Assembly (NCBI GenBank): GCA_964479195.1
Contig: CAYZLI010000001.1
Span: 28,572 to 92,571 of the forward strand
From: an uncultured Rhodocyclaceae bacterium
Lineage (GTDB): Bacteria > Pseudomonadota > Gammaproteobacteria > Burkholderiales > Rhodocyclaceae
Reading direction: 5' to 3'
DNA length: 64,000 bases
The position numbers and the translations under genes were made by a program. The notes beneath the pieces were generated by a model. That model did not search any database. It worked only from the letters and a program-made list of their open reading frames with translations, and was not told the DNA's origin. Each line of letters begins with the position of its first letter. The stretch's first letter is position 1. Below are positions 9,795-40,493 of this stretch, piece after piece.

Positions 9795-11090
9795 ATGGCC
9801 AAGAAAATGCACGATCTGCCCAACCTCGACCAATTGGAATCGGGCCCCTGGCCCAGCTTCGTCACCGGCCTGAAGCGTCTGGCGAAGGACAAGGACTACG
9901 CGGTCGATATTCTGGGTCACCTGGAACACTCGTACAAGACGCGCAAGGGCTACTGGAAAGGTGGCACGGTGGGCGTCTTCGGCTACGGCGGCGGCGTCAT
10001 TCCCCGCTTTACCGAGATCAAGGACGGCAAGGAACAGCCGGTCTTCAAGGACGCGGCCGAGTTCCACACCATCCGCATCATGCCGCCGGCGGGCATGCAC
10101 TACAACACCGACACCCTGCGCAAGTTCTGCGACGTCTGGGATAAGTACGGCTCCGGCCTGATCGCCTTCCACGGCCAGAGCGGCGACATCATGTTCCAGG
10201 GCTGCACCACGGAGAACGTGCAAAAGGCCTGGGACGCGATCAACGAGATGGGCTTCGACATGGGCGGTGCCGGCCCGGCCGTGCGCACTTCCATGTCCTG
10301 CGTCGGCGCGGCCCGCTGCGAGCAGTCCTGCTACGACGAGGCGGCGGCCCACCGCAGCATCATCAACGCCTTCACCGACGACATCCACCGTCCGGCCCTG
10401 CCCTACAAGTTCAAGTTCAAGTTCTCCGGCTGCCCGAACGACTGCATGAACTCCATCCAGCGCGCGGACATGGCCGTGATCGGCACCTGGCGCGACAACA
10501 TCCAGACGGACGAGGCCCTGGCCAAGAAATGGTTCGCCAAGCACGGCCTGAACGAACTGGTGAACGACGTCGTCGGCATGTGCCCGACCCGCGCCATCCA
10601 GTTGAAGAACATCAAGGATGTGGCCAAGGATGGCAGCGTCTCCAGCGTCGCCGTCAACGACACCCAGGCGCTGGAAATCCAGAACCGCGACTGCGTGCGC
10701 TGCATGCACTGCATCAACGTCATGACCGGGGCGCTCTCCCCGGGCAAGGACCGCGGCGCCAGCATCCTGGTGGGCGGCAAGCGCACCCTGAAGATCGGCG
10801 ACCTGATGGGCACCGTGGTCGTGCCGTTCATCAAGCTGGACACCGAGGAAGACCGCGAAGCCCTGCTCGACCTGGCCAAGCGCGTCGTCGATTTCTTCGC
10901 CGAGAACGCCCTGGAGCACGAGCGCACCGGCGAGATGATCGAGCGCATCGGCCTGGTGAACTTCCTGGAAGGCCTGGATCTGGAGATCGACCCGAACATG
11001 GTCTCCAACCCCCGCACGAACCCCTACATCCGCATGGATGGCTGGGACGAGGAAGTGGCCAAGATCAAGGCGAAGAAGGCCGCGGCCTGA
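9795..11090 (+). CDS. dsrA: Reverse dissimilatory sulfite reductase alpha subunit
   Basis: LDQLESGPWPSFV, WKGG.VGVFGYGGG, CVGAARC, YKFKFKFSGCPNDC, CVRCMHC. Confidence 0.98.
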   Translation: MAKKMHDLPNLDQLESGPWPSFVTGLKRLAKDKDYAVDILGHLEHSYKTRKGYWKGGTVGVFGYGGGVIPRFTEIKDGKEQPVFKDAAEFHTIRIMPPAGMHYNTDTLRKFCDVWDKYGSGLIAFHGQSGDIMFQGCTTENVQKAWDAINEMGFDMGGAGPAVRTSMSCVGAARCEQSCYDEAAAHRSIINAFTDDIHRPALPYKFKFKFSGCPNDCMNSIQRADMAVIGTWRDNIQTDEALAKKWFAKHGLNELVNDVVGMCPTRAIQLKNIKDVAKDGSVSSVAVNDTQALEIQNRDCVRCMHCINVMTGALSPGKDRGASILVGGKRTLKIGDLMGTVVVPFIKLDTEEDREALLDLAKRVVDFFAENALEHERTGEMIERIGLVNFLEGLDLEIDPNMVSNPRTNPYIRMDGWDEEVAKIKAKKAAA

Positions 11091-11122
11091 AGCGCGAACG
11101 GAACTGACTGACGGAGACAACC

Positions 11123-12199
11123 ATGTCGCAACCGCAAATGCGTAAACCTGTCGAGTGCGGGATTCCCGACAACAAGCAGTACCTGCATCCCACGCTGCTC
11201 AAGAACTACGGCAACTGGAAGTACCACGACCGTCCGCGTCCCGGCGTCCTGCACCACGTCTCCAACACGGGTGACGAGGTGTGGTCGGTGCGCGCCGGCA
11301 CCCAGCGCCAGATGGACACCTACACCATCCGCAAGCTGTGCGAGATCGGCGACAAGTTCGCCGAGGGCTTCGTCCGCTTCACCATTCGCAGCAACATCGA
11401 GTTCATGGTGGCCGACCAGAAGAAGGTCGATCCGCTGATCGCCGAACTGGAGAAGAACGGCTTTCCCGTCGGCGGCACCGGCAACTCCGTGTCCATGATC
11501 GCCCACACCCAGGGCTGGCTGCACTGCGACATCCCGGGCACCGACGCCTCGGGCGTGGTGAAGGCCCTGATGGACGAGCTCTACGAAGAGTTCAAGCACG
11601 AGGAGATGCCCAACCGGGTGCGCCTGTCGACCTCCTGCTGCGAGATCAACTGCGGCGGCCAGGCGGACATCGCCATCATCATCCAGCACACCAAGCCGCC
11701 GAAGATCAACCACGACCTGGTCGCCAACGTCTGCGAGCGTCCGGCCGTCGTGGCGCGCTGCCCAGTGGCGGCCATCCGCCCGGCCCTGGTGAACGGCAAG
11801 CCCACCCTGGAGGTGGACGAGAAGAAGTGCGTCTGCTGCGGCGCCTGCTTCCCGCCCTGCCCGCCCATGCAGATCAACGATCCGGAGCACTCGAAGCTCG
11901 CCATCTGGGTCGGCGGCAAGAACTCGAACGCCCGCATCAAGCCGCAGTTCATGAAGATGGTCGCCGCCGGCCTGCCCAACAACGCGCCGCGCTGGCCGGA
12001 AGTGGGCGCCGTCGTGAAGAACATCCTGCGCGTGTACAAGGCAGACGCCCGCCCCTGGGAGCGGGTGGCCGACTGGATCGACCGCATCGGCTGGCCGCGC
12101 TTCTTCGAGAAGACCGGGCTGCCCTTCACCAAGTACCTGATCGACGACTGGAAGGGCGCGCGCGGCACCCTGAACGCCTCGACCCATATTCGTTTCTGA
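11123..12199 (+). CDS. dsrB: Reverse dissimilatory sulfite reductase beta subunit
   Basis: HTQGWLHC, SCCEINCG, CVCCGAC, NNAPRWPE, RIGWPRFF. Confidence 0.98.
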   Translation: MSQPQMRKPVECGIPDNKQYLHPTLLKNYGNWKYHDRPRPGVLHHVSNTGDEVWSVRAGTQRQMDTYTIRKLCEIGDKFAEGFVRFTIRSNIEFMVADQKKVDPLIAELEKNGFPVGGTGNSVSMIAHTQGWLHCDIPGTDASGVVKALMDELYEEFKHEEMPNRVRLSTSCCEINCGGQADIAIIIQHTKPPKINHDLVANVCERPAVVARCPVAAIRPALVNGKPTLEVDEKKCVCCGACFPPCPPMQINDPEHSKLAIWVGGKNSNARIKPQFMKMVAAGLPNNAPRWPEVGAVVKNILRVYKADARPWERVADWIDRIGWPRFFEKTGLPFTKYLIDDWKGARGTLNASTHIRF

Positions 12200-12211
12200 G
12201 CTGGAGAAGGT

Positions 12212-12571
12212 ATGAAGTTCGGCATCCTGGTCAACGAAGGGCCCTACACGCACGAAGCCTCGGACAGCGCCTACCTGTTTTGCCGGGCGGCGCTGGCCAA
12301 GGGCCACCAGATCCACCGCGTATTTTTCTATCACGACGGCGTCAACAACTCGACGCGGCTCACCGAGCCGCCCCTGGACGACCGCAACATCGTGAACCGC
12401 TGGTCCAAGCTGGCGGAGGAGCACAACCTCGACCTCGTGGTGTGCGTCGCCGCGGCCCTGCGCCGCGGCATCAAGGACGAGAACCTGGCCCCCGGCTTCC
12501 GCATTTCCGGCCTCGGCCAGCTCATCGAATCCGGCATCCAGGCCGACCGCCTGGTGACGTTCGGCGACTAG
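12212..12571 (+). CDS. dsrE: Sulfurtransferase DsrE
   Basis: VFFYHDGV, VCVAAALRRG, GFRISGLGQL. Confidence 0.96.
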   Translation: MKFGILVNEGPYTHEASDSAYLFCRAALAKGHQIHRVFFYHDGVNNSTRLTEPPLDDRNIVNRWSKLAEEHNLDLVVCVAAALRRGIKDENLAPGFRISGLGQLIESGIQADRLVTFGD

Positions 12572-12838
12572 GGAGCTCAACCGTGAATAATTCATGGGAT
12601 GCGTTGCGGCCAATAGGCCCGGATGCAAGGCGCGGCGACGCAGCAATGCCCGCCGCCTTGCAAGGAGCCGCAACGCCGCAGCCGGGCCTATTGGCCGCAA
12701 CCCTTCGGGACGGGGGTATCCGGCCCGCATGGCTGCGTTGCTCGTCGCTTATTTGGAAGACCAAACGGCGCTCCTCGCGCCTTGCCCTGCGAGCCGGATA
12801 CCCCCGTCGCACCCACGAATTATTTACGGATGAGCTCC
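12572..12838. mobile_element. MITE-like element with ~27-bp terminal inverted repeats and two internal hairpins, between dsrE and dsrF
   Basis: GGAGCTCAACCGTGAATAATTCATGGG vs revcomp GGAGCTCATCCGTAAATAATTCGTGGG; perfect 20-bp stem 12603-12622/12682-12701 and 16-bp stem 12709-12724/12793-12808. Confidence 0.8.
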
Positions 12839-12860
12839 AAACGCTCGGGGAGACATCGCG

Positions 12861-13232
12861 ATGAGCGAAGGAAAGATCAAGACTTTCATGTATGTGAACC
12901 GCAAGGCGCCCCACGGCACCATCTACGCGCTGGAATCGCTCGAGGTGGTGCTGATCGCCGCGGCCTTCGACCAGGACGTCAGCCTGGCCTTCCTGGACGA
13001 CGGCGTCTACCAGTTGAAGAAGGGCTTCCAGACCAAGGGCATCGAGACGAAGAACTTCCAGCCGACCTACCGCGCGCTGGAGGACTACGACATCACCAAG
13101 CTCTATGTCGAGAAGGAAGCGCTCGAAGCGCGCGGCCTGACGGCCGACGACCTGTGCGTGCCCGTCGAGGTGCTGGCGCGTGCCCAGATCGGCAAGTTGA
13201 TGGAACAGCAGGACGTGGTCCTGAGCTTCTGA
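12861..13232 (+). CDS. dsrF: DsrF
   Basis: RKAPHGTIYALESLE, AFLDDGVYQL. Confidence 0.96.
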   Translation: MSEGKIKTFMYVNRKAPHGTIYALESLEVVLIAAAFDQDVSLAFLDDGVYQLKKGFQTKGIETKNFQPTYRALEDYDITKLYVEKEALEARGLTADDLCVPVEVLARAQIGKLMEQQDVVLSF

Positions 13233-13243
13233 GGAGAACCGTG

Positions 13244-13543
13244 ATGCTGAATATCGTCAACAAATCGCCCCTGGAAAGAAACGCTTTCGACACCTGCCTC
13301 GCCACGGCCCAGCCGGGCGGCGCCATCCTGCTCATCGAGGACGGCATCTACGCCGCCACGAAGGGCAACGCCGCCGCGGCGAAGCTGGAAAAGGCCATGT
13401 CGCAGTTCAAGGTCTACGCCCTGGCACCCGACGTGGATGCGCGCGGCATGGGCGGTGCCGTCATGAGCGGCGTCACCCTCGTGGATTACGGCGGCTTCGT
13501 CGAGCTGGTCGCCGAACACAACACCTGCCAATCCTGGCTGTAA
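13244..13543 (+). CDS. dsrH: DsrH
   Basis: MLNIVNKSP, LLIEDGIYAA, VDYGGFVELV...QSWL. Confidence 0.95.
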   Translation: MLNIVNKSPLERNAFDTCLATAQPGGAILLIEDGIYAATKGNAAAAKLEKAMSQFKVYALAPDVDARGMGGAVMSGVTLVDYGGFVELVAEHNTCQSWL

Positions 13544-13570
13544 CACTGTTTATTTAGGAGACACCCCATC

Positions 13571-13903
13571 ATGGCTATCGAAGTGAACGGCAAGAGCTAC
13601 GAGACCGACGAAGAAGGCTATCTCATCAACCTCGGCGAGTGGAACGAGGACGTCGCGGCGTTCCTGGCCCAGCAGGAAAACGTGGCCCTGAGCGACCAGC
13701 ACTGGGAGGTCATCAACTTCCTGCGCGAGTACTACAACGAATTCCAGATCGCCCCGGCCGTGCGCGTGCTGACCAAGGCCATCGGCAAGAAGCTCGGAGC
13801 GGAGAAGGGCAACAGCCAATACCTGTACGAGCTGTTCCCCTACGGCCCGGCCAAGCAGGCGTGCAAGATCGCCGGCCTGCCCAAGCCCACCGGCTGCGTC
13901 TAA
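13571..13903 (+). CDS. dsrC: DsrC sulfur carrier (both C-terminal Cys)
   Basis: LFPYGPAKQACKIAGLPKPTGCV. Confidence 0.97.
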   Translation: MAIEVNGKSYETDEEGYLINLGEWNEDVAAFLAQQENVALSDQHWEVINFLREYYNEFQIAPAVRVLTKAIGKKLGAEKGNSQYLYELFPYGPAKQACKIAGLPKPTGCV

Positions 13904-13916
13904 GAAAATCCGACTA

Positions 13917-13999
13917 ACCACGGCGGCACGGCGACATGGCGAAAACCGGAAAGACGATATCTCTGCCTTGTTGCGCCGTGTCGCCGTGTTCGCCGTGGT
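13917..13999. repeat. Palindromic element: 3x CACGGCG-like heptamer plus 3 inverted copies
   Basis: cacggcg/cacggcg/catggcg at 13919, 13927, 13935; cgccgtg at 13974, 13982, 13991. Confidence 0.8.
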
Positions 14000-14011
14000 G
14001 AAAGTTTTTTC

Positions 14012-14737
14012 ATGACCCTCTTCTTTGCAGTGCTCTTCTACGCGGCCACGGCGATCTTCGCCACCGGCCTGGCGTACAAGATCTACGACTTCGCGCGCAC
14101 GCCTGCGCCGCTGAAGATCCCCACCACGCCGGCGCCGACGACGACCGGTGGCGTGTGGCTTCGCATGCTGCGCGAAGTGGCCCTGTTCGAGAGCCTGTTC
14201 AAGTCCAATCTGTGGATCTGGGCGCTCGGCATCCTGTTCCACGGGGCGCTGCTGCTGGTGCTGTTGCGCCACCTGCGCTACTTCACCGAGCCGGTGTGGT
14301 CCTGGGTGGGCTGGATCCAGCCCTTCGGCATCTACGCCGGCTTCGCCATGGTGGCCGGGCTGGCCGGCCTGTGGGGTCGCCGCTTCCTGGTGGAGCGCAT
14401 CCGCTACATCTCCACCCCGTCGGATCACCTGATGCTGGCGTTGCTCGTGGCCATCGGCCTGACCGGCCTGGCCATGAAGTTCCTCATGCACACCGACATC
14501 GTCGCCGTGAAGGCCTTCTTCCTCGGCCTGATGATGTTCGACGTCCAGCCGCTGCCCTCGCACCCGGGCCTGTACATTCACCTGGGATTGGTGGCGCTGC
14601 TGATGATCATCTTCCCGTTCAGCAAGCTGCTGCACGCCCCGGGCGTGTTTTTCAGCCCGACGCGCAACCAGGCCGACGACCCGCGCGAGCGGCGCCATCT
14701 GGCGCCCTGGGCCGCGGGTCTGGACGCCAAGAACTAA
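14012..14737 (+). CDS. dsrM: DsrM membrane b-type cytochrome (NarI-like)
   Basis: PLKIPTTP, LFH..LLVLLRHLRYF, FPFSKLLH. Confidence 0.95.
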   Translation: MTLFFAVLFYAATAIFATGLAYKIYDFARTPAPLKIPTTPAPTTTGGVWLRMLREVALFESLFKSNLWIWALGILFHGALLLVLLRHLRYFTEPVWSWVGWIQPFGIYAGFAMVAGLAGLWGRRFLVERIRYISTPSDHLMLALLVAIGLTGLAMKFLMHTDIVAVKAFFLGLMMFDVQPLPSHPGLYIHLGLVALLMIIFPFSKLLHAPGVFFSPTRNQADDPRERRHLAPWAAGLDAKN

Positions 14738-14752
14738 GACGCTGGAGCAAAC

Positions 14753-16282
<1,530 letters not shown>

Positions 16283-16300
16283 AGCTATTCCAAGGAGACA

Positions 16301-18277
16301 ATGATGTCGGCCACAAACGAGAACACCGGTACGCAACTGAGCTTCCGCCGCTACAAGGACGGCGACACCAAGCCCAAGCGCATGCAGGACATCATCTTCA
16401 AGGCGAGCTGGTCGCACAAGTGCCCGACGTACGTCCAGTCCACCCCGCCCTGCCAGGGCAGCTGCCCCTCGGGCGAGGACATCCGTGGCTATCTCAACAT
16501 CGTGCGCGGCGTCGAGAAGCCGCCCGTCGGCGCCGACGGCAAGCCGGTGATGCCCTGGCAGGAATACGCCTGGCGCCGCCTCACCGAGGCCAATCCCTTC
16601 CCCGGCGTCATGGGCCGCGTCTGCCCGGCGCCCTGCGAGACCGGCTGCAACCGCAACGTGCTGGAAGACCACGTCGGCATCAACTCCGTCGAGCACTTCC
16701 TGGGCGATTACGCCGTCAAGAACAACCTGAAGTACCTGGCGCCCGAGGCCAAGACCGGCAAGAAGGTGGCGGTGATCGGCGGCGGCCCGGCCGGCCTGTC
16801 CTGCGCCTACCAGCTTGCCCGCATGGGCCATGAAGTCACCATTTTCGACGAGCACGAGTTCCTCGGCGGCATGATGCGCTACGGCATCCCGGGCTTCCGC
16901 ACGCCGCGCGACCTGCTCGATGCCGAGATCCAGCGCATCCTCGACCTGGGCGTGAAGGCGCGCATGAAGTGCCGCGTCGGCAGCGACATCACCATGGACG
17001 AGATCCGCAAGCAGTTCGACGCCGTGTTCATGGGCCTGGGCGCTCAGGGCGGCCGGCCGCTGCCGGTAAAGGATTCGGAAGCGCCCAACATCGTCACCGC
17101 GACCGCCTTCCTCAGGGCCTTCAACGACGGCCGCATGCGCCACGTGGGCAAGCGCGTGGTGGTGGTCGGCGGCGGCGATACCTCCATCGACGTCGCCACC
17201 GTGGCCCGCCGCCTCGGCGCCCTCGAGAACGCCAAGCCCACCGACCGGCCCGAGCATGCCATCGCCGGCCAGGTGGCCCACGACGTGGCCGAAGTCTCGG
17301 CCCGCCAGGGCGCCGAGGTGACCCTGACCTCCGTCTTCGGCGTCGACAAGATGCAGGCCAACAAGCACGAGATCGAGCAGGCCAAGGCGGAGGGCATCGA
17401 CATCCGCGGCGGCTACGCCCCCGTCGGTGTGGTCAAGGGCCCGGACGGCCGCGCCACCGCGCTGCGCGTGGCCAAGTGCGAGGCCAAGTTCGTCGGCCCC
17501 AAGCTCGAGATCAAGATGATCGAGGGCACCGAGGAGGACATCCCGGCCGACCTCATCGTCTCGGCCATCGGCCAGGCGGTGGATTTCACCGGCCTGCGGG
17601 AATTCGACAACGGCAAGGGCGGCATGACGGCCGACAAGAACTACCAGGTGCAGGGCAAGCCGGGCGTGTTCGCCGGGGGCGACGTCCTTCGCCCGCATCT
17701 GCTCACCACGGCCATCGGCCACGGCTGGATCGCGGCCGAGGGCATCGACCGGCACCTTCGCGGCGAGGAGCAGGAGCGCCGCCCGAAGATCGACGTGCAC
17801 TACTGGGACATGCAGCGCAAGCTGGTCGAGTCCGGCAAGCCGGTCGGCGAGATCCATGAACCCCTGCGCGGCACCTGGGACTCCAAGGGGGCGGTGCATA
17901 ACTTCGAGAACCGCTCCGACCGCTACGTCATCACCCACAAAGAACTGTTCCTCGGCCACTTCAACTATACGCCGCGCAACGTGCGCAGCTTCATCACGCT
18001 GAATGCCGAACAGGCGCTGGGCAATTTCCAGGAGCGCCTGGAAGGGTTCGACGACAAGCAGGCAATCGCCGAGGCCAAGCGCTGCATGAGCTGCGGCCAG
18101 TGCTTCGAGTGCGACAACTGCGTGGTGTATTGTCCGCAGACGGCGGTCTATCGCGTCAAGAAGACCGAGGCGACGACCGGCCGCTACGTGGCGACCGACT
18201 ACAGCAAGTGCATCGGCTGCCACATCTGCACAGATGTCTGCCCGACCGGCTACATCCAGATGGGCCTCGGGGAGTGA
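16301..18277 (+). CDS. dsrL: DsrL NAD(P)H:acceptor oxidoreductase, probably DsrL-1 (NAD-type)
   Basis: PCQGSCP, GRVCPAPCE, GGGPAG, GGGDT, C-terminal 2x[4Fe-4S]; LTSVF where DsrL-2 has YRR. Confidence 0.95.
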   Translation: MMSATNENTGTQLSFRRYKDGDTKPKRMQDIIFKASWSHKCPTYVQSTPPCQGSCPSGEDIRGYLNIVRGVEKPPVGADGKPVMPWQEYAWRRLTEANPFPGVMGRVCPAPCETGCNRNVLEDHVGINSVEHFLGDYAVKNNLKYLAPEAKTGKKVAVIGGGPAGLSCAYQLARMGHEVTIFDEHEFLGGMMRYGIPGFRTPRDLLDAEIQRILDLGVKARMKCRVGSDITMDEIRKQFDAVFMGLGAQGGRPLPVKDSEAPNIVTATAFLRAFNDGRMRHVGKRVVVVGGGDTSIDVATVARRLGALENAKPTDRPEHAIAGQVAHDVAEVSARQGAEVTLTSVFGVDKMQANKHEIEQAKAEGIDIRGGYAPVGVVKGPDGRATALRVAKCEAKFVGPKLEIKMIEGTEEDIPADLIVSAIGQAVDFTGLREFDNGKGGMTADKNYQVQGKPGVFAGGDVLRPHLLTTAIGHGWIAAEGIDRHLRGEEQERRPKIDVHYWDMQRKLVESGKPVGEIHEPLRGTWDSKGAVHNFENRSDRYVITHKELFLGHFNYTPRNVRSFITLNAEQALGNFQERLEGFDDKQAIAEAKRCMSCGQCFECDNCVVYCPQTAVYRVKKTEATTGRYVATDYSKCIGCHICTDVCPTGYIQMGLGE

Positions 18278-18285
18278 GGATCGTG

Positions 18286-18777
18286 ATGCCCCGCATCCTC
18301 CGCCATCTCGGCGTGGCCGCGATGCTGGCGCTGTGGGCCTTGGGCGCCTCGGCGGCCGATAGCGGCCGCGTGCCGAAGCCCGCCGTCGTCATCGAAAAGG
18401 GCGACAAGTGCGTCGCGGACAAGGACAGCATGCGCCGCGACCACATGAAGTTCCTCAAGCACCAGCGCGACAAGACCATGCGCGAGGGCATCCGCACCAA
18501 GCAGTTCAGCCTGAACGAGTGCATTTCCTGCCACGCCAGCCAGAAGACCGGCAGCGTCATCGGGGCCAACGACAACTTCTGCCAGGGCTGCCACGCCTAC
18601 GCCGCGGTGAAGCTGGACTGCTTCGAGTGCCACCAGCCCAAGGCGAGGCCACCCGTGCAGGCGCCCGTGCAGGGCCAGGCCGCTCCCGCCGACGGCGAGC
18701 TGGCCGCCTCGATGCTGCGCGGCCGGGGCACGCCCCCGGGTGTGCCCGATTCCGACAAGGAAACCAGCAAGCCATGA
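18286..18777 (+). CDS. dsrJ: DsrJ periplasmic triheme cytochrome c
   Basis: Signal peptide; CISCH, CQGCH, CFECH; MRRDHMKFL. Confidence 0.95.
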   Translation: MPRILRHLGVAAMLALWALGASAADSGRVPKPAVVIEKGDKCVADKDSMRRDHMKFLKHQRDKTMREGIRTKQFSLNECISCHASQKTGSVIGANDNFCQGCHAYAAVKLDCFECHQPKARPPVQAPVQGQAAPADGELAASMLRGRGTPPGVPDSDKETSKP

Positions 18778-19526
18778 GCGACAACCCGAACCAGCGACGC
18801 CAGTTCCTCGCCGCCTCGGCAGCCGTGGCCGGCATGGCCGGCATGGCCGGCGTGGCAATAGCCCCCGGCATCCGCCTGATCGAAATCGCCTCCGCCCGTC
18901 CGGCCGAGCAAGCCGCCTCCGGCAAAGTGCGCTGGGGCATGTTCATCGACACCACCCGCTGCCAGACCGGCTGCACCGACTGCGTCAAGGCCTGCAACAA
19001 GGAAAACGGCCTGGGGGAGGTGACGCGCCCGCGCACCGACGCCCAGTGGATCCGCAAGATCGATCTCAAGGACCTGAAGACCGGCCACGCCGTGTCCCTG
19101 CCCATGATGTGCCAGCACTGCGCCAACCCACCCTGCGTGGATGTGTGCCCGACCGGCGCCTCCATGAAGCGCGCCGACGGCATCGTCCTGGTGGACCGCC
19201 ACATCTGCATCGGCTGCCGCTACTGCATGATGGCCTGCCCCTACAAGGCGCGCTCCTTCGTGCATGAGGAGCACACGGACCAGAACCCCGACGTGCCGCG
19301 GGGCAAGGGCTGCGTGGAAGGCTGCACCCTGTGCGTGCACCGCGTCGACCGCGACCAGCAGCCGGCCTGCGTCGAGGCCTGCGCCGCGGCCGGCCACAAC
19401 GCCATGCTGTTCGGCGACCTCAATGACTCGGCAAGCGAGATCTCCAAGCGCATCAAGGAGGTGGCCTCCACCCAGGTGCGCGCCGATCTCAAGCTCGATC
19501 CGGGCGTCCGCTACCAGGGGATCTAA
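18774..19526 (+). CDS. dsrO: DsrO Tat-exported Fe-S protein
   Basis: RRQFL Tat motif; CQHCANPPCVDVCP, CIGCRYCMMACPY. Confidence 0.95.
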   Translation: MSDNPNQRRQFLAASAAVAGMAGMAGVAIAPGIRLIEIASARPAEQAASGKVRWGMFIDTTRCQTGCTDCVKACNKENGLGEVTRPRTDAQWIRKIDLKDLKTGHAVSLPMMCQHCANPPCVDVCPTGASMKRADGIVLVDRHICIGCRYCMMACPYKARSFVHEEHTDQNPDVPRGKGCVEGCTLCVHRVDRDQQPACVEACAAAGHNAMLFGDLNDSASEISKRIKEVASTQVRADLKLDPGVRYQGI

Positions 19527-19530
19527 GGCT

Positions 19531-20742
19531 ATGGCCAGCGTCGTTTATCGGGAAATCGGCAACCGCAACGCCTTCTACGCCGTGCTGGCGCTGCTCGGTG
19601 GGTTTATCGCCCTGGGCGCCGGCGCTTTCTTGTACATGGAACACAACGGCCACATCGTGACCGGCATGGACAACCAGACCGTCTGGGGCATGCCGCACGT
19701 CTTCGCCGTGTTCCTCATCGTCGCCGCCTCGGGCGCGCTGAACGTCGCCTCCACCGCCTCGGTGTTCGGCAAGACGGTGTACAAGCCCCTGGCACCGCTC
19801 TCCGCCCTGCTCGCCTTCTCGCTCCTGCTGGGCGGTCTCACGGTGCTCATGCTCGACCTGGGCCGCTCCGACCGCCTCATCGTGGCGATGACCTATTACA
19901 ACTTCAAGTCGATCTTCGCGCTGAACGTCTTCCTCTACACCGGCTTCTTCGGCATCGTCGCCGCATACCTCTGGACGATGATGGAGCGACGCATGAACCC
20001 GTACTCGAAGCCCGCCGGGTTCGCCGCCTTCGTCTGGCGCCTGGCACTCACCACCGGTACCGGCTCCATTTTCGGTTTCCTGGTGGCACGCGATGCCTAT
20101 GACTCCGCCTTGTTGGCGCCCATGTTCATCGTCTTCTCCTTCGCCTACGGCACGGCCCTGTTCCTGCTCGTGCTGATGGCTGCCTGCCGCCTGGACGGCC
20201 GCGAGCTCGGCGATGCCATCGTCAGCCGCCTGAAGAACCTGCTCGGCACCTTCGTCGCCGCCTCGCTCTACTTTGTCACGGTGTTCCACCTGACCAAGCT
20301 GTATGTGACGAGGCTGCACGACGTCGAGCGCTTCATCCTCCTGGACGGCGGCATCCACACGACGCTGTTCTGGGCTGGCCAGGTGCTGGCGGGCGGGGTC
20401 GCCCCGCTGGTCATTCTGTTCCACCCGCGGCTGTCGAAGTCGCGCGGCTGGCTCGCCGCCGCCTGCCTGCTGATCGTCGCCGGCGGGCTGGCGCAGATGT
20501 ATGTCACCATCGTCGGCGCCCAGGCCTTCCCCCTGTCGATCTTCCCCGGCTACGAAGTCTCCAGCAGCTTCTTCGATGGCAAGGTGAACCCATACGAGCC
20601 CAGCCTTCCCGAAGTCCTGCTCGGCCTGGGCGGCTTCGCCCTAGCGCTCGCTGCCGTAACCGTGGCCGTCAAGGTGCTGCGCTTCGTGCCCGAGCGGCTG
20701 GATGATGCGGCCATGGACCCGCACCACGCCAAGCAGGCGTAA
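19531..20742 (+). CDS. dsrP: DsrP NrfD-family membrane protein
   Basis: TGM...WGMPHVFAVFLIVAASG, DLGR.DRL, multiple TMs. Confidence 0.95.
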   Translation: MASVVYREIGNRNAFYAVLALLGGFIALGAGAFLYMEHNGHIVTGMDNQTVWGMPHVFAVFLIVAASGALNVASTASVFGKTVYKPLAPLSALLAFSLLLGGLTVLMLDLGRSDRLIVAMTYYNFKSIFALNVFLYTGFFGIVAAYLWTMMERRMNPYSKPAGFAAFVWRLALTTGTGSIFGFLVARDAYDSALLAPMFIVFSFAYGTALFLLVLMAACRLDGRELGDAIVSRLKNLLGTFVAASLYFVTVFHLTKLYVTRLHDVERFILLDGGIHTTLFWAGQVLAGGVAPLVILFHPRLSKSRGWLAAACLLIVAGGLAQMYVTIVGAQAFPLSIFPGYEVSSSFFDGKVNPYEPSLPEVLLGLGGFALALAAVTVAVKVLRFVPERLDDAAMDPHHAKQA

Positions 20743-20744
20743 GC

Positions 20745-20768
20745 TCCGCGGGGGTTCCCCGCGGATTT
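20745..20768 (+). terminator. GC hairpin between dsrP and dsrN (weak terminator or mRNA stabiliser)
   Basis: tccgcgggg-gtt-ccccgcgga followed by ttt. Confidence 0.4.
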
Positions 20769-20773
20769 CGTGC

Positions 20774-22210
20774 ATGCACCGCTTTCTCATCTCCGCCGCC
20801 CACAAGTCCTCCGGCAAGACGACCATCAGCCTGGGGCTGGCGGCGGCGCTGAAACACCGCGGCCTGTCGGTGCAGGCCTACAAGAAGGGCCCGGACTACA
20901 TCGACCCCATCTGGCTCGGCATGGCCAGCGGCCGGACCTGCCGCAACCTGGATTTCTATCTCGCCCCCCCCGAGGAGCTGCGCGAACTCTACGCCCGCCA
21001 CGGCGCCGGCGCCGATGTCTGCCTGGTGGAAGGCAACAAGGGACTGTACGACGGCCTGGACCTGGCCGGCAGCAACAGCAACGCCGCCCTGGCCCAGCTC
21101 CTCGACCTGCCCGTGGTGCTGGTCCTCGATGCGCGCGGCATGACCCGGGGCATCGCCCCCCTGATCCTCGGCTACCAGGCCTTCGACCGGACCATCCGCA
21201 TCGCCGGCGTCATCCTCAACCGCCTCGGCGGCCGGCGCCACGAAGCCAAGCTGCGCGCCGTGATCGAGCATTACACGGACGTGCCGGTGCTGGGCGCCGT
21301 CGCGGAGAACCCGGAGCTGGCCATCGTCGAACGCCACCTGGGCCTGATGCCGGCCAACGAGTCCGGCGCCGCCCGGGAGCGCGTCGCCGCCATCGCCGCC
21401 ACCATCGGCCGGCAGGTCGATCTCGATCGCCTGCTGGAAGTCACCGCCAGCGACGAGCCCCTCCGTCCGCGGACGGCCGCCCCGGCCCGCAGTACGCAGC
21501 CCCGGCTGCGCATCGGCATCGCCCGGGACCAGGCCTTCGGCTTCTATTACGCGGACGACCTGGACGCCCTGGCGGCGGCCGGCGCCGAGCTGGTGCCCTT
21601 CAGCCCCATCGCCGACCCGCGCCTGCCGGAGGTGGACGCCCTGTTCCTCGGCGGCGGCTTCCCCGAGTGCTTCATGGCCGAGCTGGAGGCCAACGCGTCG
21701 ATGCGCCAGGCGGTGCATGACGCCATCGAGGACGGCATGCCCGCCTACGCCGAATGCGGCGGCCTGATGTACCTGGCCCGCAGCCTGGCCTGGCGCGGCG
21801 AGACGCGCCGCATGGCCGGCGCCATCGCCGGCGACGTGGTGATGCACGACAAGCCCGTCGGCCGCGGCTACGTCCGCCTGGCGCCGACGCAGGCCCACCC
21901 CTGGGTGGCGGCGAACGCCCATGCGGATGCGCTCCCGGGCGACATCCCGGCCCACGAGTTTCATTACTCGAGCCTGCAGAATCTCGCCCCCGGCACGGTG
22001 TTCGCCTACCGGGTGCTGCGCGGCTACGGCCTGGACGGCGAGCACGACGGCGTCGTCTACAAGAACCTGCTGGCCTCCTACACGCACCTGCGCAGCGCCG
22101 GCCACTGCGACTGGGCGAGCCGCTTCGTCGCCTTCGCCCGCCGCTGCCTGCGCCGCGAGAACCGGGACGCGGCCGCCGTCGCCGTATCGGTCGCCCAATC
22201 CACCCCCTGA
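20774..22210 (+). CDS. dsrN: DsrN siroheme amidase (CobB/CbiA-like)
   Basis: SSGKTT, KKGPDYID, EGNKGLYDG, AECGGLMYL, HEFHYS. Confidence 0.95.
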   Translation: MHRFLISAAHKSSGKTTISLGLAAALKHRGLSVQAYKKGPDYIDPIWLGMASGRTCRNLDFYLAPPEELRELYARHGAGADVCLVEGNKGLYDGLDLAGSNSNAALAQLLDLPVVLVLDARGMTRGIAPLILGYQAFDRTIRIAGVILNRLGGRRHEAKLRAVIEHYTDVPVLGAVAENPELAIVERHLGLMPANESGAARERVAAIAATIGRQVDLDRLLEVTASDEPLRPRTAAPARSTQPRLRIGIARDQAFGFYYADDLDALAAAGAELVPFSPIADPRLPEVDALFLGGGFPECFMAELEANASMRQAVHDAIEDGMPAYAECGGLMYLARSLAWRGETRRMAGAIAGDVVMHDKPVGRGYVRLAPTQAHPWVAANAHADALPGDIPAHEFHYSSLQNLAPGTVFAYRVLRGYGLDGEHDGVVYKNLLASYTHLRSAGHCDWASRFVAFARRCLRRENRDAAAVAVSVAQSTP

Positions 22211-22224
22211 CAAGGACTTACCCG

Positions 22225-22587
22225 ATGTTCACCCTCTCCCCCGCCGCCGCCACCCGCATCCTGGACTCCGCCGAACAAAGCGGCGCGGCCGGCATGGCCG
22301 TGCGCATTGCCGCCAAGATCGACGAGGACGGACAGGTCGTCTTCGGCCTGGGCTTCGACGAGGAGCGGGAACAGGACCTGTCCCTCCAGTGCGAGGGCGT
22401 CACGGTGCTGATCGCCCCTCCCAGCCAGGAGATTCTGGCCGGCATGATGCTGGACTTCGTCGAGGTGGAGCCGGACAACTGGCAGTTCGTCTTCTTCCAG
22501 TCCGCAGCCCCCGGCGGCTGCTCGACCGGTGGCAACAGCGGCTGCGGCGGCTGCGGCAGCCAGGGCGGCTGCTCCAGCGGCGCTTGA
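22225..22587 (+). CDS. dsrR: DsrR IscA/HesB-like protein with Cys/Gly-rich tail
   Basis: MFTLSPAAA..I, RIAAK...G...FGLGFD, LDFVE; position after dsrN. Confidence 0.85.
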   Translation: MFTLSPAAATRILDSAEQSGAAGMAVRIAAKIDEDGQVVFGLGFDEEREQDLSLQCEGVTVLIAPPSQEILAGMMLDFVEVEPDNWQFVFFQSAAPGGCSTGGNSGCGGCGSQGGCSSGA

Positions 22588-22618
22588 CCCAGCGCAATTG
22601 GCTCGCGGAAGCCATGGG

Positions 22619-22624
22619 TATAAT
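22619..22624 (+). promoter_or_regulatory. Possible sigma70 -10 box for cysG
   Basis: Perfect TATAAT in a GC-rich intergenic region; -35 unclear. Confidence 0.35.
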
Positions 22625-22643
22625 GGGCCAGACCATTTGCTGA

Positions 22644-22710
22644 CGCGGATTTACGCGGATACTCGCGGATTTCTTCTGGGTATAGCCGTGTCCATCCGCG
22701 TTAATCCGCG
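22644..22710. repeat. Palindromic element: 3x CGCGGAT (period 10) plus inverted copies
   Basis: cgcggat at 22644, 22654, 22664; atccgcg at 22694, 22704, degenerate copy at 22684. Confidence 0.8.
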
Positions 22711-22722
22711 CCGAAAGCTCCC

Positions 22723-24159
22723 ATGGATTACCTGCCCATTTTCCTGAACATCCGCGGCGAGCGCTGCGTCGTCGTGGGCGGCGGCACGGTGGCCGCCCGC
22801 AAGGCCGGCGTCCTGCGCGACTGCGGGGCCCGCGTCACGATCGTCTCCCCCGAGCTGGGGGAAGCCCTCGCCGTGGAAGCGGCCGAGGGCCGCGTCCAGC
22901 ATGTCGCCGCCCGCTTCGCCGACGCGCATCTGGACGGCGCCCTGGCCGTGGTCGCCGCCACGGACGAGCACGCGGTCAATGAGGCCGTCTACCGGGCCGC
23001 CAAGGCCCGGGGCATCCCGGTCAACGTCGTCGATTCCCCCGAGCTGTGCTCCTTCATCTTCCCCTCCATCGTGGATCGCTCGCCCATGGTGGTGGCGGTA
23101 TCCACCGGCGGCGCCTCGCCGGTGCTGGCCCGCATGATGCGCGCCCGGCTGGAAACCCTGATCCCGGCAGCCTACGGCCGGCTGGCCAAGCTGGCCGAGG
23201 CGTTCCGTGATCGCGTCAAGCAGCACTTCTCCAACCCGGCCCGGCGCCGCATTTTCTGGGAAAACGCCCTGCAGGGACCGTTCGCGGACATGGTGCTGGC
23301 GGGCAAGGAGCGGATGGCCGAGGAATGGCTGCAAAAAGAGCTCGCCGGCACCCCGGACGAACGGCCCCGCGGCGAGGTCTATCTCGTGGGCGCCGGTCCG
23401 GGCAACCCGGATCTGCTCACCTTCCGCGCCCTCAAGCTCATGCAGCAGGCCGACGTGGTCGTGCATGACCACCTGGTGCCGCCGGCCATCGTCAACCTGT
23501 GCCGGCGCGACGCCCAGCGCATCTATGTCGGCAAGCAGCGCAACGACCATACCCTGCGCCAGGAAGAGATCAATAAGCTCCTCGTCCGGCTGGCCGAGGA
23601 GGGCAAGCGCGTGCTGCGCCTGAAGGGCGGCGACCCCTTCATCTTCGGCCGTGGCGGCGAGGAGATCGAGACCCTGTCCGCCCACGGCGTGCGCTTCGAG
23701 GTGGTGCCGGGCATCACCGCCGCGGCGGGCGTGGCCTCCTATGCCGGCATCCCCCTCACCCACCGGGACTATTCCCACGCCTGCGTCTTCGTCACCGGCC
23801 ACCTCAAGGACGGCAGCATGGACCTGGACTGGCCGGCCCTGGCGCGCCCGGGCCAGACCGTGGTGATCTACATGGGCTTGCTCGGCCTGGCGGTGGCCTG
23901 CCGCGAGCTGATGGCCCACGGCCTGCCGGCGGACTGGCCGGCCGCCATCGTGCAGCAAGGCACCACCCACAAGCAGCGCGTGCTCATCGGCACGCTGGAA
24001 ACCCTGCCGCCGCTGGCGACGGCGGCGCAGCTCAGGCCACCGACGCTGATCATCGTCGGCGAGGTGGTGAAGCTGCACGACAAGCTGAAGTGGTTCGAGC
24101 CGGATCAGGCTCCCGACGTGGGCGCCTGGAAGAAAAGCGACAAGATCGCCGCGGTCTGA
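22723..24159 (+). CDS. cysG: Siroheme synthase CysG
   Basis: VVGGGTVAARK, VYLVGAGPGNPDLLT, RLKGGDPFIFGRGGEE. Confidence 0.97.
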   Translation: MDYLPIFLNIRGERCVVVGGGTVAARKAGVLRDCGARVTIVSPELGEALAVEAAEGRVQHVAARFADAHLDGALAVVAATDEHAVNEAVYRAAKARGIPVNVVDSPELCSFIFPSIVDRSPMVVAVSTGGASPVLARMMRARLETLIPAAYGRLAKLAEAFRDRVKQHFSNPARRRIFWENALQGPFADMVLAGKERMAEEWLQKELAGTPDERPRGEVYLVGAGPGNPDLLTFRALKLMQQADVVVHDHLVPPAIVNLCRRDAQRIYVGKQRNDHTLRQEEINKLLVRLAEEGKRVLRLKGGDPFIFGRGGEEIETLSAHGVRFEVVPGITAAAGVASYAGIPLTHRDYSHACVFVTGHLKDGSMDLDWPALARPGQTVVIYMGLLGLAVACRELMAHGLPADWPAAIVQQGTTHKQRVLIGTLETLPPLATAAQLRPPTLIIVGEVVKLHDKLKWFEPDQAPDVGAWKKSDKIAAV

Positions 24160-31670: not shown

Positions 31671-31963
31671 GCATGCGACTGGCGGCTCTCCTGATCTGTG
31701 TGTGTGCCGGCCCGGCCTTCGCTGCCGACGGCAAGGCGATATACGACCGGGTCTGCTACAAGTGCCATCGGTCGGGCGTGGATGAGGCGCCGATCGCGGG
31801 CGACAAGGAGGCCTGGGCCCCGCGGCTTGCCTCCGGCATGGCCACGCTGTACAGGAGCGTGATGGAAGGCAAAGGGGAGATGCCCCCCCGCGCCAACAAA
31901 CCCGAACTGACCGACGAGGAGCTCAAGGCCGGTGTGGATTACATGGTCGGGCTGGTCAAGTAG
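31667..31963 (+). CDS. Cytochrome c5
   Basis: GKAIYDRVCYKCH..G...AP..GDK.AW, MPPR. Confidence 0.9.
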   Translation: MSMRLAALLICVCAGPAFAADGKAIYDRVCYKCHRSGVDEAPIAGDKEAWAPRLASGMATLYRSVMEGKGEMPPRANKPELTDEELKAGVDYMVGLVK

Positions 31964-35468: not shown

Positions 35469-36041
35469 CTAGCGGTGGGGCGCGGGCAGCGGCCAGCGGC
35501 CGTCCAGCACGCGCTCGGCCCACAGCAGGCAGGCAACCGTCTTGCCGTCGGTCAGGCGGCCGTCGCGCACGGCCTCGATCGCCTCCCCCAAGGCAAGTTC
35601 GTGCACTTCGAGGAACTCGCCGTCGTCCAGCGCATGGCCGACGTGGCTCAGGCCGCGGGCGAAGAAGATTTCGATACGCTCGTCCGAGTAGCCGATGCAG
35701 GGGTGGATGACGCCGAGGTAATGCCAGTCGCGGGCCACATAGCCCGTCTCCTCCTGAAGTTCCCGCCGCGCGGTGAGCAGGATGTCCTCGCCCGGGTGGA
35801 TCTTGCCGGCAGGGAGCTCCAGGAAGACGCGGTGGAGGGGGTAGCGGAACTGGCGCTCGAAGAGCAGCTTGCCGTTGGGCAACTCGGCGATCATGACCAC
35901 GGCACCGGGATGGGTAACGTACTCGCGGGTGGCCACCATCCCGTCCGGCAGGCTCACGCGGTCGCGCTTCACTTTCAGCAGGCGGCCGCCGAAGACCTCC
36001 TCGCTGTCCAGCCCGACCTCGCGCAGGTGGCTATCGCTCAT
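35469..36041 (-). CDS. NUDIX hydrolase (ADP-ribose pyrophosphatase-like)
   Basis: ELPAGKIHPGEDILLTARRELQEETGY Nudix box; QFRYP. Confidence 0.92.
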   Translation of the reverse strand: MSDSHLREVGLDSEEVFGGRLLKVKRDRVSLPDGMVATREYVTHPGAVVMIAELPNGKLLFERQFRYPLHRVFLELPAGKIHPGEDILLTARRELQEETGYVARDWHYLGVIHPCIGYSDERIEIFFARGLSHVGHALDDGEFLEVHELALGEAIEAVRDGRLTDGKTVACLLWAERVLDGRWPLPAPHR

Positions 36042-36091
36042 GCTGCCCCGCAAAGCCCCGTTGAACCAATTCCCGAGTGCTTTGGTCGAAT

Positions 36092-36107
36092 ATTAGTCAT
36101 GACTAAT
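36092..36107. promoter_or_regulatory. Perfect 16-bp palindrome, candidate operator
   Basis: ATTAGTCATGACTAAT, 19 nt upstream of ATG 36127. Confidence 0.6.
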
Positions 36108-36126
36108 TAACTAGACGGAGGACCAT

Positions 36127-36582
36127 ATGAACGACTTCATTCCCGGCTTCGCGGCCGACGGCGTGGTCACCGTCAACCGCGTCGTGCTCAAGCCGCAGTA
36201 TAGCGTCGACGACCTGGAGGAACGGGTCGCGGTGCTCTGCGAAAACGTGAAGACCTACCACTCGGAAACCGGCTTCGTCGGCGGCTTCGTCTGCCTCAAT
36301 TCCGGCATGATTTCCAACGAGGGCAGCACGGTCGGCCAGGCGGTCGCCAGCGCCCTCAAGGACCGCGAGGCGCTGATCATCACCTTCTGGCACTCCTTCG
36401 AGGAACACGAAGCCTCGCACCGCAGCCCGACCTTCCAGCCGCTGTTCCGGCAGGTGCTGGAGTTGTGCGAAAACGGCAACGAGGAGATCGCCTACCGCAT
36501 GCTGTGGTCGGGCAAGGCCTACAGCGCGGAAGAAGCCAAGGCGGCCCGGGAGGCCAAGGAGCAGTACCTGAGAGCCGCGTAA
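36127..36582 (+). CDS. Dimeric alpha/beta-barrel protein with sulfur oxygenase reductase-like motifs
   Basis: GGAGGA RBS; LCENVKTYHSETGFVG, TFWHSFEEHEASHR, GNEEIAY. Confidence 0.7.
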   Translation: MNDFIPGFAADGVVTVNRVVLKPQYSVDDLEERVAVLCENVKTYHSETGFVGGFVCLNSGMISNEGSTVGQAVASALKDREALIITFWHSFEEHEASHRSPTFQPLFRQVLELCENGNEEIAYRMLWSGKAYSAEEAKAAREAKEQYLRAA

Positions 36583-38457: not shown

Positions 38458-38991
38458 ATGTCACAACAAGTCGCCTGGCAACTTTCACTCGTCCTGATAA
38501 CGCTGCTGGCCAGCGTCTTCGCCTTCGTCGCGGGCACCGCCGGGACCCGCGAGGCGGATTACACGCCGCTGCAGAAGCGGGCCTACCGCGTCCGCGCCCG
38601 GCTGTTCTGGACGCTGGTGCTGCTGTTCGGGCCGGTGATGGTGTACACGCTGCTGGATCTGCCCTACGACGCGGCCGCCGCCCGCAACGCCGCCGCCCCG
38701 GTGCAAGTGATCGAAGCGGTGGGTTATCAGTGGCGCTGGGAATTGAGCCGCGACCGCATCGTCGCCGGACAGCCGGTGGAATTCCGCGTCAGCAGCGCGG
38801 ACGTCAATCACGGCTTCGGCATCTACGACCCGGACATGCGCCTGGTGGCGCAGACCCAGGTCATGCCGGGCTATACCAACAAGGTCCGCCATACCTTCAG
38901 CAAAGAGGGCACCTACAAGGTCCTGTGCATGGAGTACTGCGGCATTGCACACGACAACATGATCGCCGAACTCAAAGTCGGCAGCCTGTAA
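38458..38991 (+). CDS. norS: CuA-containing subunit II of sNOR-type heme-copper oxidase
   Basis: GYQWRW, DVNHGF, CMEYCGIAHDNM. Confidence 0.8.
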   Translation: MSQQVAWQLSLVLITLLASVFAFVAGTAGTREADYTPLQKRAYRVRARLFWTLVLLFGPVMVYTLLDLPYDAAAARNAAAPVQVIEAVGYQWRWELSRDRIVAGQPVEFRVSSADVNHGFGIYDPDMRLVAQTQVMPGYTNKVRHTFSKEGTYKVLCMEYCGIAHDNMIAELKVGSL

Positions 38992-39005
38992 AGGAGGAGA
39001 CGAGC

Positions 39006-40493
39006 ATGGCGACCTGCATCACGAGCCAAGCGCCCGATCAAGGGGCAAGAGCCGGCGTCCTGGCCTATCTGGTCACGGCCGCCCTGGTCCTGCTGCTGAT
39101 GATGGTCTTCGGCCTGCTCATGCGGCTGGAGCAGGCGGAGGTGACCACCCTGGGCGCCAGCCGGTTCTACGAGCTCATGACGCTCCATGGCGCCGGCATG
39201 GTGGGCATCGCCGGCCTCGCGGGCGCGGCCATCATGTGGCACTTCCTGCGCCGGTACGTGGAGCTGTCCCAGCGGATCTTCGTCGCCAACCTGGTGTTCT
39301 TTCTCGCCGGCGTGGTCATGATCCTGGCCAGCGTCCTGCTCGGGCACTTCCACGCGGGGTGGACCTTCCTCTACCCGCTGCCGGCGAAGTCGATGGGCAT
39401 GTGGAGCCAGGAAGCGGCGGCTCTGTTCATGGGCGGCCTGCTGGTGATCGGCGTCGGCTTCCTGCTGCTCCACCTGGACGTCGCCCGCGCCGTGATCGCC
39501 GGCTACGGCAACTTCGCCCGGGCGCTCGGCTGGCCGCAACTGTTCGGCCACGACGACGGCCACGCGCCGCCGCCCACGGTGGTGGCGAGCGTGATGGTGA
39601 CGATCGTGAACATCATCGGATTGGTGGTCGGCGCCAGCATCCTGACGATGATGCTGGTGAACCTCTACGTGCCGAGCTTCGACATCGATCCGCTGCTGGC
39701 CAAGAACATGATCTATTTCTTCGGCCACGTCTTCATCAATGCCAGCATCTACATGGCGGTGATCGCGGTGTACGAGATCCTGCCGCGCTACACGCAGCGG
39801 CCCTGGAAGTCGAACAAGGTGTTCCTCGCCTCGTGGACGGCCTCGACGCTGATGGTGATGTTCATCTATCCGCACCACCTGCTGATGGATTTCGCCATGC
39901 CGAAATGGATGCTGATCATGGGCCACGTCATCGGCTACCTCAACGGCATTCCGATCCTGGTGGTGACGGCCTACGGCGCGCTGATGATCGTGTTCCGCTC
40001 CGGCATCCGCTGGGACATGGCCTCCGGCCTGCTGTTTCTTTCCCTCTTCGGCTGGGCCGCCGGGGCCATGCCGGCGATCATCGACGGCACCATCACGGTG
40101 AATTACGTGATGCACAACACCCTGTGGGTGCCGGGACATTTCCACACCTACCTGCTGCTCGGCATGGTGACCATGGTCTTCGGCTTCATGTACTACCTCG
40201 GCAAGCCGAGCCGGGAAGCCGCAAGCGGCGTGCTCGACCGCGCCGCGTTCTGGGTGTTCGCCGTCGCCACCCTGGGCTTCACGCTGAGCTTCCTCTACTC
40301 CGGCCAGGCCAGCGTGGCGCGCCGCTACGCCGCCCACCTGCCCGAATGGGTTCCCTATGCCCGCATCGGCTCGGTCTTCGCCGTGCTGGTGATCGCCGCC
40401 GTGCTGGTCTTCGTGCTGCGCTTCCTCGGCCGCCTGCGCTTCGCCGCGCAGGATGCGCCGCGGGCGGCGCTGGCACGCGGAGCCGCCGCGTGA
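39006..40493 (+). CDS. norY: Heme-copper superfamily subunit I, sNOR-type NO reductase
   Basis: TLHG, GWTFLYPL, FFGHVFIN (Asn in place of cross-linked Tyr), PHHL, HNTLWVPGHFH. Confidence 0.82.
   Translation: MATCITSQAPDQGARAGVLAYLVTAALVLLLMMVFGLLMRLEQAEVTTLGASRFYELMTLHGAGMVGIAGLAGAAIMWHFLRRYVELSQRIFVANLVFFLAGVVMILASVLLGHFHAGWTFLYPLPAKSMGMWSQEAAALFMGGLLVIGVGFLLLHLDVARAVIAGYGNFARALGWPQLFGHDDGHAPPPTVVASVMVTIVNIIGLVVGASILTMMLVNLYVPSFDIDPLLAKNMIYFFGHVFINASIYMAVIAVYEILPRYTQRPWKSNKVFLASWTASTLMVMFIYPHHLLMDFAMPKWMLIMGHVIGYLNGIPILVVTAYGALMIVFRSGIRWDMASGLLFLSLFGWAAGAMPAIIDGTITVNYVMHNTLWVPGHFHTYLLLGMVTMVFGFMYYLGKPSREAASGVLDRAAFWVFAVATLGFTLSFLYSGQASVARRYAAHLPEWVPYARIGSVFAVLVIAAVLVFVLRFLGRLRFAAQDAPRAALARGAAA

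Follow-up and report, generated by a model that had tools for sequence, protein, structure and literature searches.

Background

The closest described relative of the protein considered here is sulfur oxygenase reductase (SOR; EC 1.13.11.55; PF07682, NF047630; PDB 2cb2, 6m35, 6qpa): a chain of ~310 amino acids made of two ferredoxin-like repeats and assembled as a hollow 24-mer with chimney channels (residues 125-152). The available part of one study of StSOR (PMC7398979) reports that alanine at C31, H86, H90 or E114 abolishes both activities, that C101A and C104A lower them tenfold, and that SOR also releases sulfide. A second point of reference is the ABM superfamily (PF03992; SnoaB 3kg0, RslO4 7bio, IsdG/IsdI, MhuD), whose members are single ferredoxin-like domains. 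The third is regulatory: type-1 sites, exemplified by the E. coli isc promoter, bind holo-IscR, which is released on cluster oxidation, and no SOR-like gene is seen as a target in the text available of either source (PMC12594620, PMC4169559).

The DNA analysed here (the window) is a stretch of 64,000 nucleotides from an uncultured Rhodocyclaceae bacterium. It encodes a protein of 151 amino acids that a preliminary description, made from the letters alone, had called a half-size, single-domain, SOR-like non-heme-iron enzyme, perhaps of ancestral type. No published description of such a family was found in the openly accessible full-text literature. Positions below are those of the window.

The gene, its family and its invariant residues

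Rereading the sequence returned the open reading frame, its strand, its length and all of the protein motifs just as they had been quoted. That the frame is a real gene follows from its homologues, which, clustered at 90% identity, number at least 4351 (of 4395 candidates, 4351 pass E 0.001; the family size is a lower bound), and from the skew of differences toward the third codon position: 2041/1532/4655 at positions 1/2/3, in comparison with 80 GTDB homologues. Sequence prediction gives the protein no membrane segment, and a consensus scan found neither a sigma-70 promoter nor a terminator at the gene. The best 120 homologue clusters are at least 79% identical; they frequently carry the NCBI name "ligand-binding protein SH3". 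To judge by the predicted model, that name is wrong for this family, because the fold is alpha/beta ferredoxin-like rather than an all-beta SH3 barrel; no SH3 family was matched by the query protein in Pfam or NCBIfam, or by any of 150 members. The features of the locus are collected in Table 1.

Table 1. Features of the half-size gene, its promoter and its surroundings (window positions)
Feature	Position	Strand	Basis or remark
Gene, 151-aa single-domain SOR relative	36127..36582	+	ORF, AlphaFold2 model and homologue conservation
Ribosome-binding site GGAGG	36117..36121	+	sequence; 5 bases 5' of ATG
Predicted IscR type-1 operator	36068..36094	.	23.3 bits; between half-size gene and divergent NUDIX gene
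Second operator-like box, ATAT-n-AG-N6-CT-n-ATAT type	36090..36109	.	contains the palindrome at 36092-36107
Cys38 codon	36238..36240	+	invariant in 150 sequences; aligns to SOR Cys31, the essential persulfide cysteine
His94-x3-His98 codons	36406..36420	+	align to SOR iron ligands His86/His90; one predicted helix (91-99)
Cys114 codon	36466..36468	+	near SOR Cys104 in alignment; Ala in 2/15 sister members
Glu120 codon	36484..36486	+	aligns to SOR iron ligand Glu114 (E-x-x-Y)
NUDIX hydrolase gene, divergent, common intergenic region	35469..36041	-	context only
Reverse-Dsr gene cluster from dsrA on	9795..24159	+	context only; pathway with which the family co-occurs

Of 1.84 billion representatives searched with the family profile, 191 matched, many of them fragments. 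Beside the core subfamily there is a shorter sister subfamily (2017 clusters when searched from one of its members, P0167, a set that may overlap with the core one); mutual identity of the two is only 29-40%, and some sister members have been automatically named HmoA. Rhodocyclaceae, Sulfuricella, Thiobacillus, Thioalkalivibrio, Sedimenticola, Thiohalocapsa, Magnetovibrio and Thermocrinis are among the named carriers, which also count purple sulfur bacteria (loci L020, L071), organisms in which sulfur oxidation is anaerobic.

In an alignment of 150 sequences of both subfamilies, hand-chosen from the matches with fragments and frameshifted-looking representatives left out, the invariant residues are C38, F50, G66, W88, H94, H98, E120, Y123, W127 and G129: the Cys/His/His/Glu set picked out in the preliminary description is thus kept throughout. 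All four residues are present in 80 of 80 GTDB loci (the search patterns for which included C38 and E120, and not H94 or H98), in 42 of 44 class-wide core copies (the two others are cut by contig ends) and in 15 of 15 sister copies; a few divergent representatives (P0152, P0211, P0251) are without the histidines. Glu119, adjoining Glu120, is replaced by Tyr or Phe in the sister subfamily. The family is a stand-alone single domain, as had been claimed, since only 5 of 7997 scored candidates are longer, with partner domains that are unrelated or absent.

Relation to sulfur oxygenase reductase

How close to SOR is this protein? Taken alone, it matches SOR weakly, yet SOR is its sole match in Pfam (E 0.035; 13.4 bits against a cut-off of 25) and in NCBIfam (NF047630; 15 bits against a cut-off of 400); it has no match to the Pfam ABM family (PF03992). 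One divergent relative (P0177) rises above the Pfam SOR cut-off, at 28.2 bits. When the family profile is searched against the PDB, the top nine matches are all SOR (E 7e-4 to 0.053), and IsdI and IsdG appear as weak matches (E 0.16-0.26); among the 150 members, 21 match SOR and 7 match Pfam ABM (E<=0.01). Applied to full-length SORs, the profile finds the catalytic N-terminal repeat in 10 of 10, with per-sequence E of 4e-8 to 2e-5 (these are 10 of the 11 in the class sample described below; one was not parsed). In hhalign the N-repeat is matched at a probability of 60% for canonical SOR and 86% for a divergent clade, the C-repeat at <1%. The homology to the catalytic repeat that had been proposed is borne out by these comparisons.

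The profile sets C38/H94/H98/E120/Y123 on C31/H86/H90/E114/Y117 of the PDB sequences of SOR, so that the register in which the SOR motifs had been quoted is correct, though their wording was not: the SOR motif reads TFW, not TMW. Further likenesses are the GF-x-G and T-F/Y-W motifs, the cysteine near Cys104 and the fold class. Cys101, the second repeat and the chimney segment of SOR, on the other hand, have no counterpart, and the match of the half-size protein ends near residue 120. A likeness of another kind lies in a hairpin motif, G-x-x-S-x-E-G-S, found in 135 of 140 family sequences, which resembles the C-repeat of 10 of 10 SORs (there G-x-x-S-x-x-G-S). Such a mosaic, with features of both SOR repeats, would fit descent from a single-domain ancestor without proving it; to that extent the term "ancestral-type" may be apt.

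For all that, the half-size protein falls outside the SOR family, because it has half the length (151 amino acids and one repeat), scores far below the family cut-offs of Pfam and NCBIfam, and finds its best fold match in a cofactor-free ABM barrel; SOR activity is here a prediction. Its family also differs from SOR in being tied to Dsr/Hdr genomes and in having, in the core subfamily, an IscR box.

The divergent full-length SOR-like clade just mentioned (~315 amino acids; L194-L199) occurs in 6 of 301 genomes, has a Pfam E of ~1e-62 as against 1e-138 for canonical SOR, and keeps the Cys, His-x3-His, CxxC and Glu motifs; its N-repeat scores slightly closer to the half-size family.

Predicted structure

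The AlphaFold2 model (mean pLDDT 92.1, pTM 0.82) is an ABM/ferredoxin-like fold with a beta-hairpin insertion and a C-terminal helix. It places C38 within helix 27-45 and E120 within strand 119-124, while H94 and H98 share helix 91-99, and these positions in the secondary structure fit the SOR site. The preliminary description had looked to a superposition with SOR and had taken a best match to an ABM barrel, with the residues unclustered or not conserved, as telling against it. Here the outcome is divided: the four residues are conserved, but the best structural match is an ABM barrel, the cofactor-free SnoaB (Z 14.4, rmsd 1.5, 97 residues aligned), and SOR, which ranks 25th-43rd (Z 11.1-11.2), is matched through residues 125-305, its non-catalytic C-terminal repeat, so that the catalytic site was never overlaid. 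No SOR was found among the Foldseek matches listed. The longest structural alignment is nevertheless that with SOR (123-126 residues, against 87-118 for the others). The ABM proteins, best structural matches of similar size, share 5-24% identity with the half-size protein, which differs from them in its extra hairpin and C-terminal helix and in the invariant Cys/His/His/Glu set pointing to SOR.

Distribution across genomes

The class sample comprises 301 genomes (300 for soxB and HdrB-like genes). The half-size family, counted over both subfamilies and with two partial matches included, occurs in 57 of 301, dsrA in 94 of 301 (two partial), soxB in 114 of 300 and an HdrB-like gene in 65 of 300, by a model that takes sHdr and Qmo-linked Hdr together. 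dsrA is present in 52 of the 57 carriers, and four of the five others have two HdrB-like genes ~3.4 kb apart; the gene is in 0 of 16 soxB-only genomes and in 1 of 176 without any marker. The association with sulfur oxidisers is thus upheld as a restriction to them, although the genomes are related and the counts overstate their independence. Of 44 near-complete close relatives, counted by hand, 17 have dsrA, and 11 of these carry the gene; none of the other 27 does. Three relatives with less complete genomes (53-81%) have it with no dsrA match. Since 42 of the 94 dsrA genomes lack it, the gene is accessory. Neither is it a simple substitute for SOR, because 7 of the 11 genomes (of 301) with a full-length SOR keep both. 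No full-length SOR was found in the window's own genome, which is 95% complete and in which the search control also matched nowhere. In two genomes (G082:C96, G333:C4) soxB directly adjoins a family member.

No family match was found in plasmids or in INPHARED phages. An intact copy (74% identity) is carried by a 257-kb, jumbo-phage-like IMG/VR contig, among phage-like genes (L200:5995-6441), with both of the operator boxes described below upstream (18 bits each). A FolE2-like gene is close to this copy, and folE2 also belongs to the predicted IscR targets of the window's genome.

Genomic neighbourhood

The gene had been placed in a lithotrophy region. This is so at a distance, the dsr operon (whose gene names beyond dsrA we presume from the look of the sequences) being 12-26 kb away, but the direct neighbours are the NUDIX gene and a gene for a sigma-54 activator, and a conserved operon partner was rejected, the neighbours varying from locus to locus. 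A NUDIX-type ORF cluster recurs at 34 of 81 loci. Over 60 class-wide loci the most frequent neighbours are a response regulator (18), DegP (15), Hsp20 (15), ribonucleotide reductase (12), sat (6) and qmo/hdr (5); isc and suf genes do not appear among those that recur, and the half-size gene was not found inside dsr operons. In five genomes (L117, L131, L134, L139, L142) it lies ~10 kb from a qmo/hdrCB-like cluster, at some loci with CbbQ-like and sat genes.

Several other features of the window deserve mention. A cassette at 38458-42591 (+), between the half-size gene and nuoN, encodes a short COX2-like protein, a divergent COX1-like protein (495 amino acids; far below the CoxA cut-off), SCO1/SenC, an unknown membrane protein and a formate/nitrite transporter; we take it to resemble the norSY-senC-orf1 ("sNOR") arrangement. 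It looks inserted, because the half-size gene and nuoN are close together in many related loci; a link of the half-size gene to this heme-copper oxidase cassette was considered and rejected, the cassette not being conserved in other loci. Among the genes that diverge from dsrA (8219-9568, -) are those for a stand-alone Cas6-family protein (8727-9320), a DUF6967 protein and a TusA-like protein; a TauD-like gene lies at 6188-7069. At 28876-31963 (+) a gene for a 420-amino-acid protein with CxxCH, a porin-like C-terminus and no Pfam match is followed by three c-type cytochrome genes.

Two operator-like boxes

Motif discovery without a seed, run on 72 homologue promoters other than that of the window, yielded a box of 27 bp. 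In the E. coli iscR promoter its motif picks out two sites, of 29.1 and 26.3 bits; this conserved type-1 box is what the half-size gene has in common with the IscR regulon; IscR binding in the window is a prediction. The window's box is the second-best among 3446 promoters scanned in its genome, where other top sites precede iscR, apbC, folE2 and grx4. The box is present in 25 of 42 core promoters (or 23 of 38 once four with sequence in common with the training promoters are left out), as against 3 of 460 controls, and in 1 of 15 sister promoters. The idea that it belongs to dsr genes at large was rejected, since only 3 of 40 regions upstream of dsrA have it. Here the box is shared with the NUDIX gene; elsewhere, by the promoter comparison, it travels with the SOR-like gene. 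The strongest IscR-type box of the genome (27.9 bits) belongs to a gene for a 161-amino-acid protein with no Pfam or NCBIfam match (L201:708-1190, -; G000:C145:8104-8589).

The operator-like palindrome already pointed out in the preliminary description, ATTAGTCATGACTAAT (16 bp, 36092-36107), is real: it is one of 6 AT-rich perfect palindromes of at least 16 bp in the 4.0-Mb genome (a count of the AT-rich subset only) and a symmetric version of a less strict motif that the homologue promoters conserve. It overlaps the IscR-type box, which had been missed. The second motif is found in 22 of 42 core promoters, 10 of 460 controls and 7 of 40 dsrA regions of 600 bp; two weak copies lie upstream of dsrA in the window (9567-9586, 7.4 bits; 9725-9744, 9.5 bits). 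Its top hits in the genome precede genes that we take to resemble rhodanese, YeeE, DUF302 and efflux systems. Such company suggests that the regulator is possibly an ArsR-type repressor sensing sulfane sulfur or persulfide. A literature search turned up nothing on the second motif.

Published expression data

The homologue of Thioalkalivibrio thiocyanoxidans is, by gene order, G372_RS0107840 (locus L031). According to the available parts of the data sources, this 444-nt gene is well expressed during growth on thiosulfate (logCPM 9.26); on thiocyanate it goes down 1.8-fold as iscR goes up 2.7-fold (PMC5744179), and under arsenite it goes up 2.0-fold and iscR 1.8-fold, along with two unrelated convergent neighbours of the gene (PMC6620896). 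These data only partly support control by IscR.

Two literature leads failed. G372_RS0107800, "ligand-binding protein SH3" in one data set, was rejected as the homologue: it is a TIGR04211 SH3 protein. The other, Alvin_2107, is an A. vinosum gene reportedly needed to oxidise stored sulfur. It was rejected as a characterised member of the family: the homologue listed in the available part of PMC8269255 is a 197-bp gene, and the portions available of PMC11267869 and PMC7787665 give the lead no support either.

What might the protein do?

The reading that we hold tentatively, at a little under even chances, is that of a cytoplasmic non-heme-iron persulfide oxygenase clearing sulfane sulfur under Fe-S stress. 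One non-heme iron would likely be bound by His94, His98 and Glu120, and Cys38 would likely capture sulfane sulfur; the iron would activate O2, and the sulfur on Cys38 would be oxidised to sulfite or thiosulfate in the cytoplasm of Dsr- and Hdr-type sulfur oxidisers. The predicted IscR box would raise expression of the gene when iron-sulfur clusters are short. The protein is probably an ABM-type homodimer, its two chains taking the place of the two repeats that a single SOR chain has, with no 24-mer cage. It would be an accessory safety valve that itself needs no Fe-S cluster, clearing persulfide and polysulfide when the Fe-S-rich Dsr/Hdr machinery is damaged. In short, the protein probably works like the catalytic half of SOR, though it is no SOR-family member. 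Several observations speak against the oxygenase: cofactor-free ABM proteins as the best structural matches, with SOR aligned through its C-terminal repeat; the weak match of the single protein to SOR and the missing counterparts of Cys101, the second repeat and the chimney; the thiocyanate response opposite to that of iscR and an arsenite response shared by two unrelated neighbours; the scarcity of the box in the sister subfamily (1/15); the presence of purple sulfur bacteria among the carriers; and the genomes that keep the gene beside a full SOR (7 of 11).

Might the likeness to SOR reflect shared ancestry and nothing else, in an ABM enzyme with an unrelated organic substrate (a cofactor-free oxygenase, a quinol oxidase, a heme- or siroheme-binding barrel)? 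SnoaB, RslO4 and other ABM proteins are indeed the best fold matches, IsdI and IsdG are weak profile matches (E 0.16-0.26), 7/150 members match Pfam ABM and the HmoA name recurs in the sister subfamily. We nonetheless consider this very unlikely: SOR outranks every ABM protein by profile and by member count (21/150) and gives the longest structural alignment, and agreement with SOR in four residues, in a family whose range is sulfur oxidisers only, seems unlikely to arise by chance. An accessory factor of Fe-S supply or repair, in which His/His/Glu would hold iron and Cys38 and Cys114 persulfide or a cluster for delivery to Dsr/Hdr enzymes, is better served by regulation: the predicted co-regulon in the gene's own genome is one of Fe-S biogenesis (iscR, apbC, grx4), and dsrA promoters are mostly without the box (3/40). 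Dsr and Hdr pathways make a high demand on Fe-S clusters, which also favours it, as do the two conserved cysteines. Yet IscR is widespread and the half-size gene is restricted to genomes of the Dsr/Hdr type; isc and suf genes do not recur beside it; the residue register is that of a sulfur oxygenase and not of a known Fe-S carrier; and the site is kept in the sister subfamily, where the box is mostly missing. On balance we think such a factor quite unlikely.

An O2-independent handler of sulfane sulfur (polysulfide activase, disproportionase or sulfur transferase) feeding the Rhd-TusA-DsrE or sHdr relay, which we rate as unlikely, would be at home in organisms that import sulfane sulfur into the cytoplasm, to which the family is tightly restricted; it would be at ease in anaerobic phototrophs, and would agree with the high expression in Tv. 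thiocyanoxidans on thiosulfate and with the sulfide release by SOR itself (both as given in the available parts of PMC5744179 and PMC7398979). Absence of the gene from 42/94 dsrA genomes and its location outside dsr operons do not suit a component of the relay. Nor does the predicted metal site: a conserved 2-His-1-carboxylate set usually activates O2.

Speculation can be taken one step beyond the persulfide oxygenase, onto shakier ground. These proteins may be single-domain sulfur oxygenases of ancestral type, the form of SOR before its duplication: an outlet for cytoplasmic sulfane sulfur that Dsr/Hdr sulfur oxidisers have kept, independent of Fe-S clusters and switched by IscR and by persulfide, widespread and overlooked, with a copy in a jumbo phage. 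That the phage keeps its copy with both operators would, on this rather doubtful proposal, mean that the gene is useful.

Significance

How cytoplasmic sulfane sulfur is handled and survived in Dsr- and sHdr-type sulfur oxidisers is still an open question, and the mechanism of SOR is disputed, partly because of its 24-mer cage. The half-size gene is present in about half of the Dsr-type genomes sampled and is far commoner than SOR (57 versus 11 of 301). If the proposed function is correct, a 17-kDa single-domain protein with the catalytic set of SOR would mean an additional, accessory step in bacterial sulfur oxidation and would offer a minimal model for the chemistry and the origin of SOR, and its IscR box would tie sulfur oxidation to Fe-S homeostasis.
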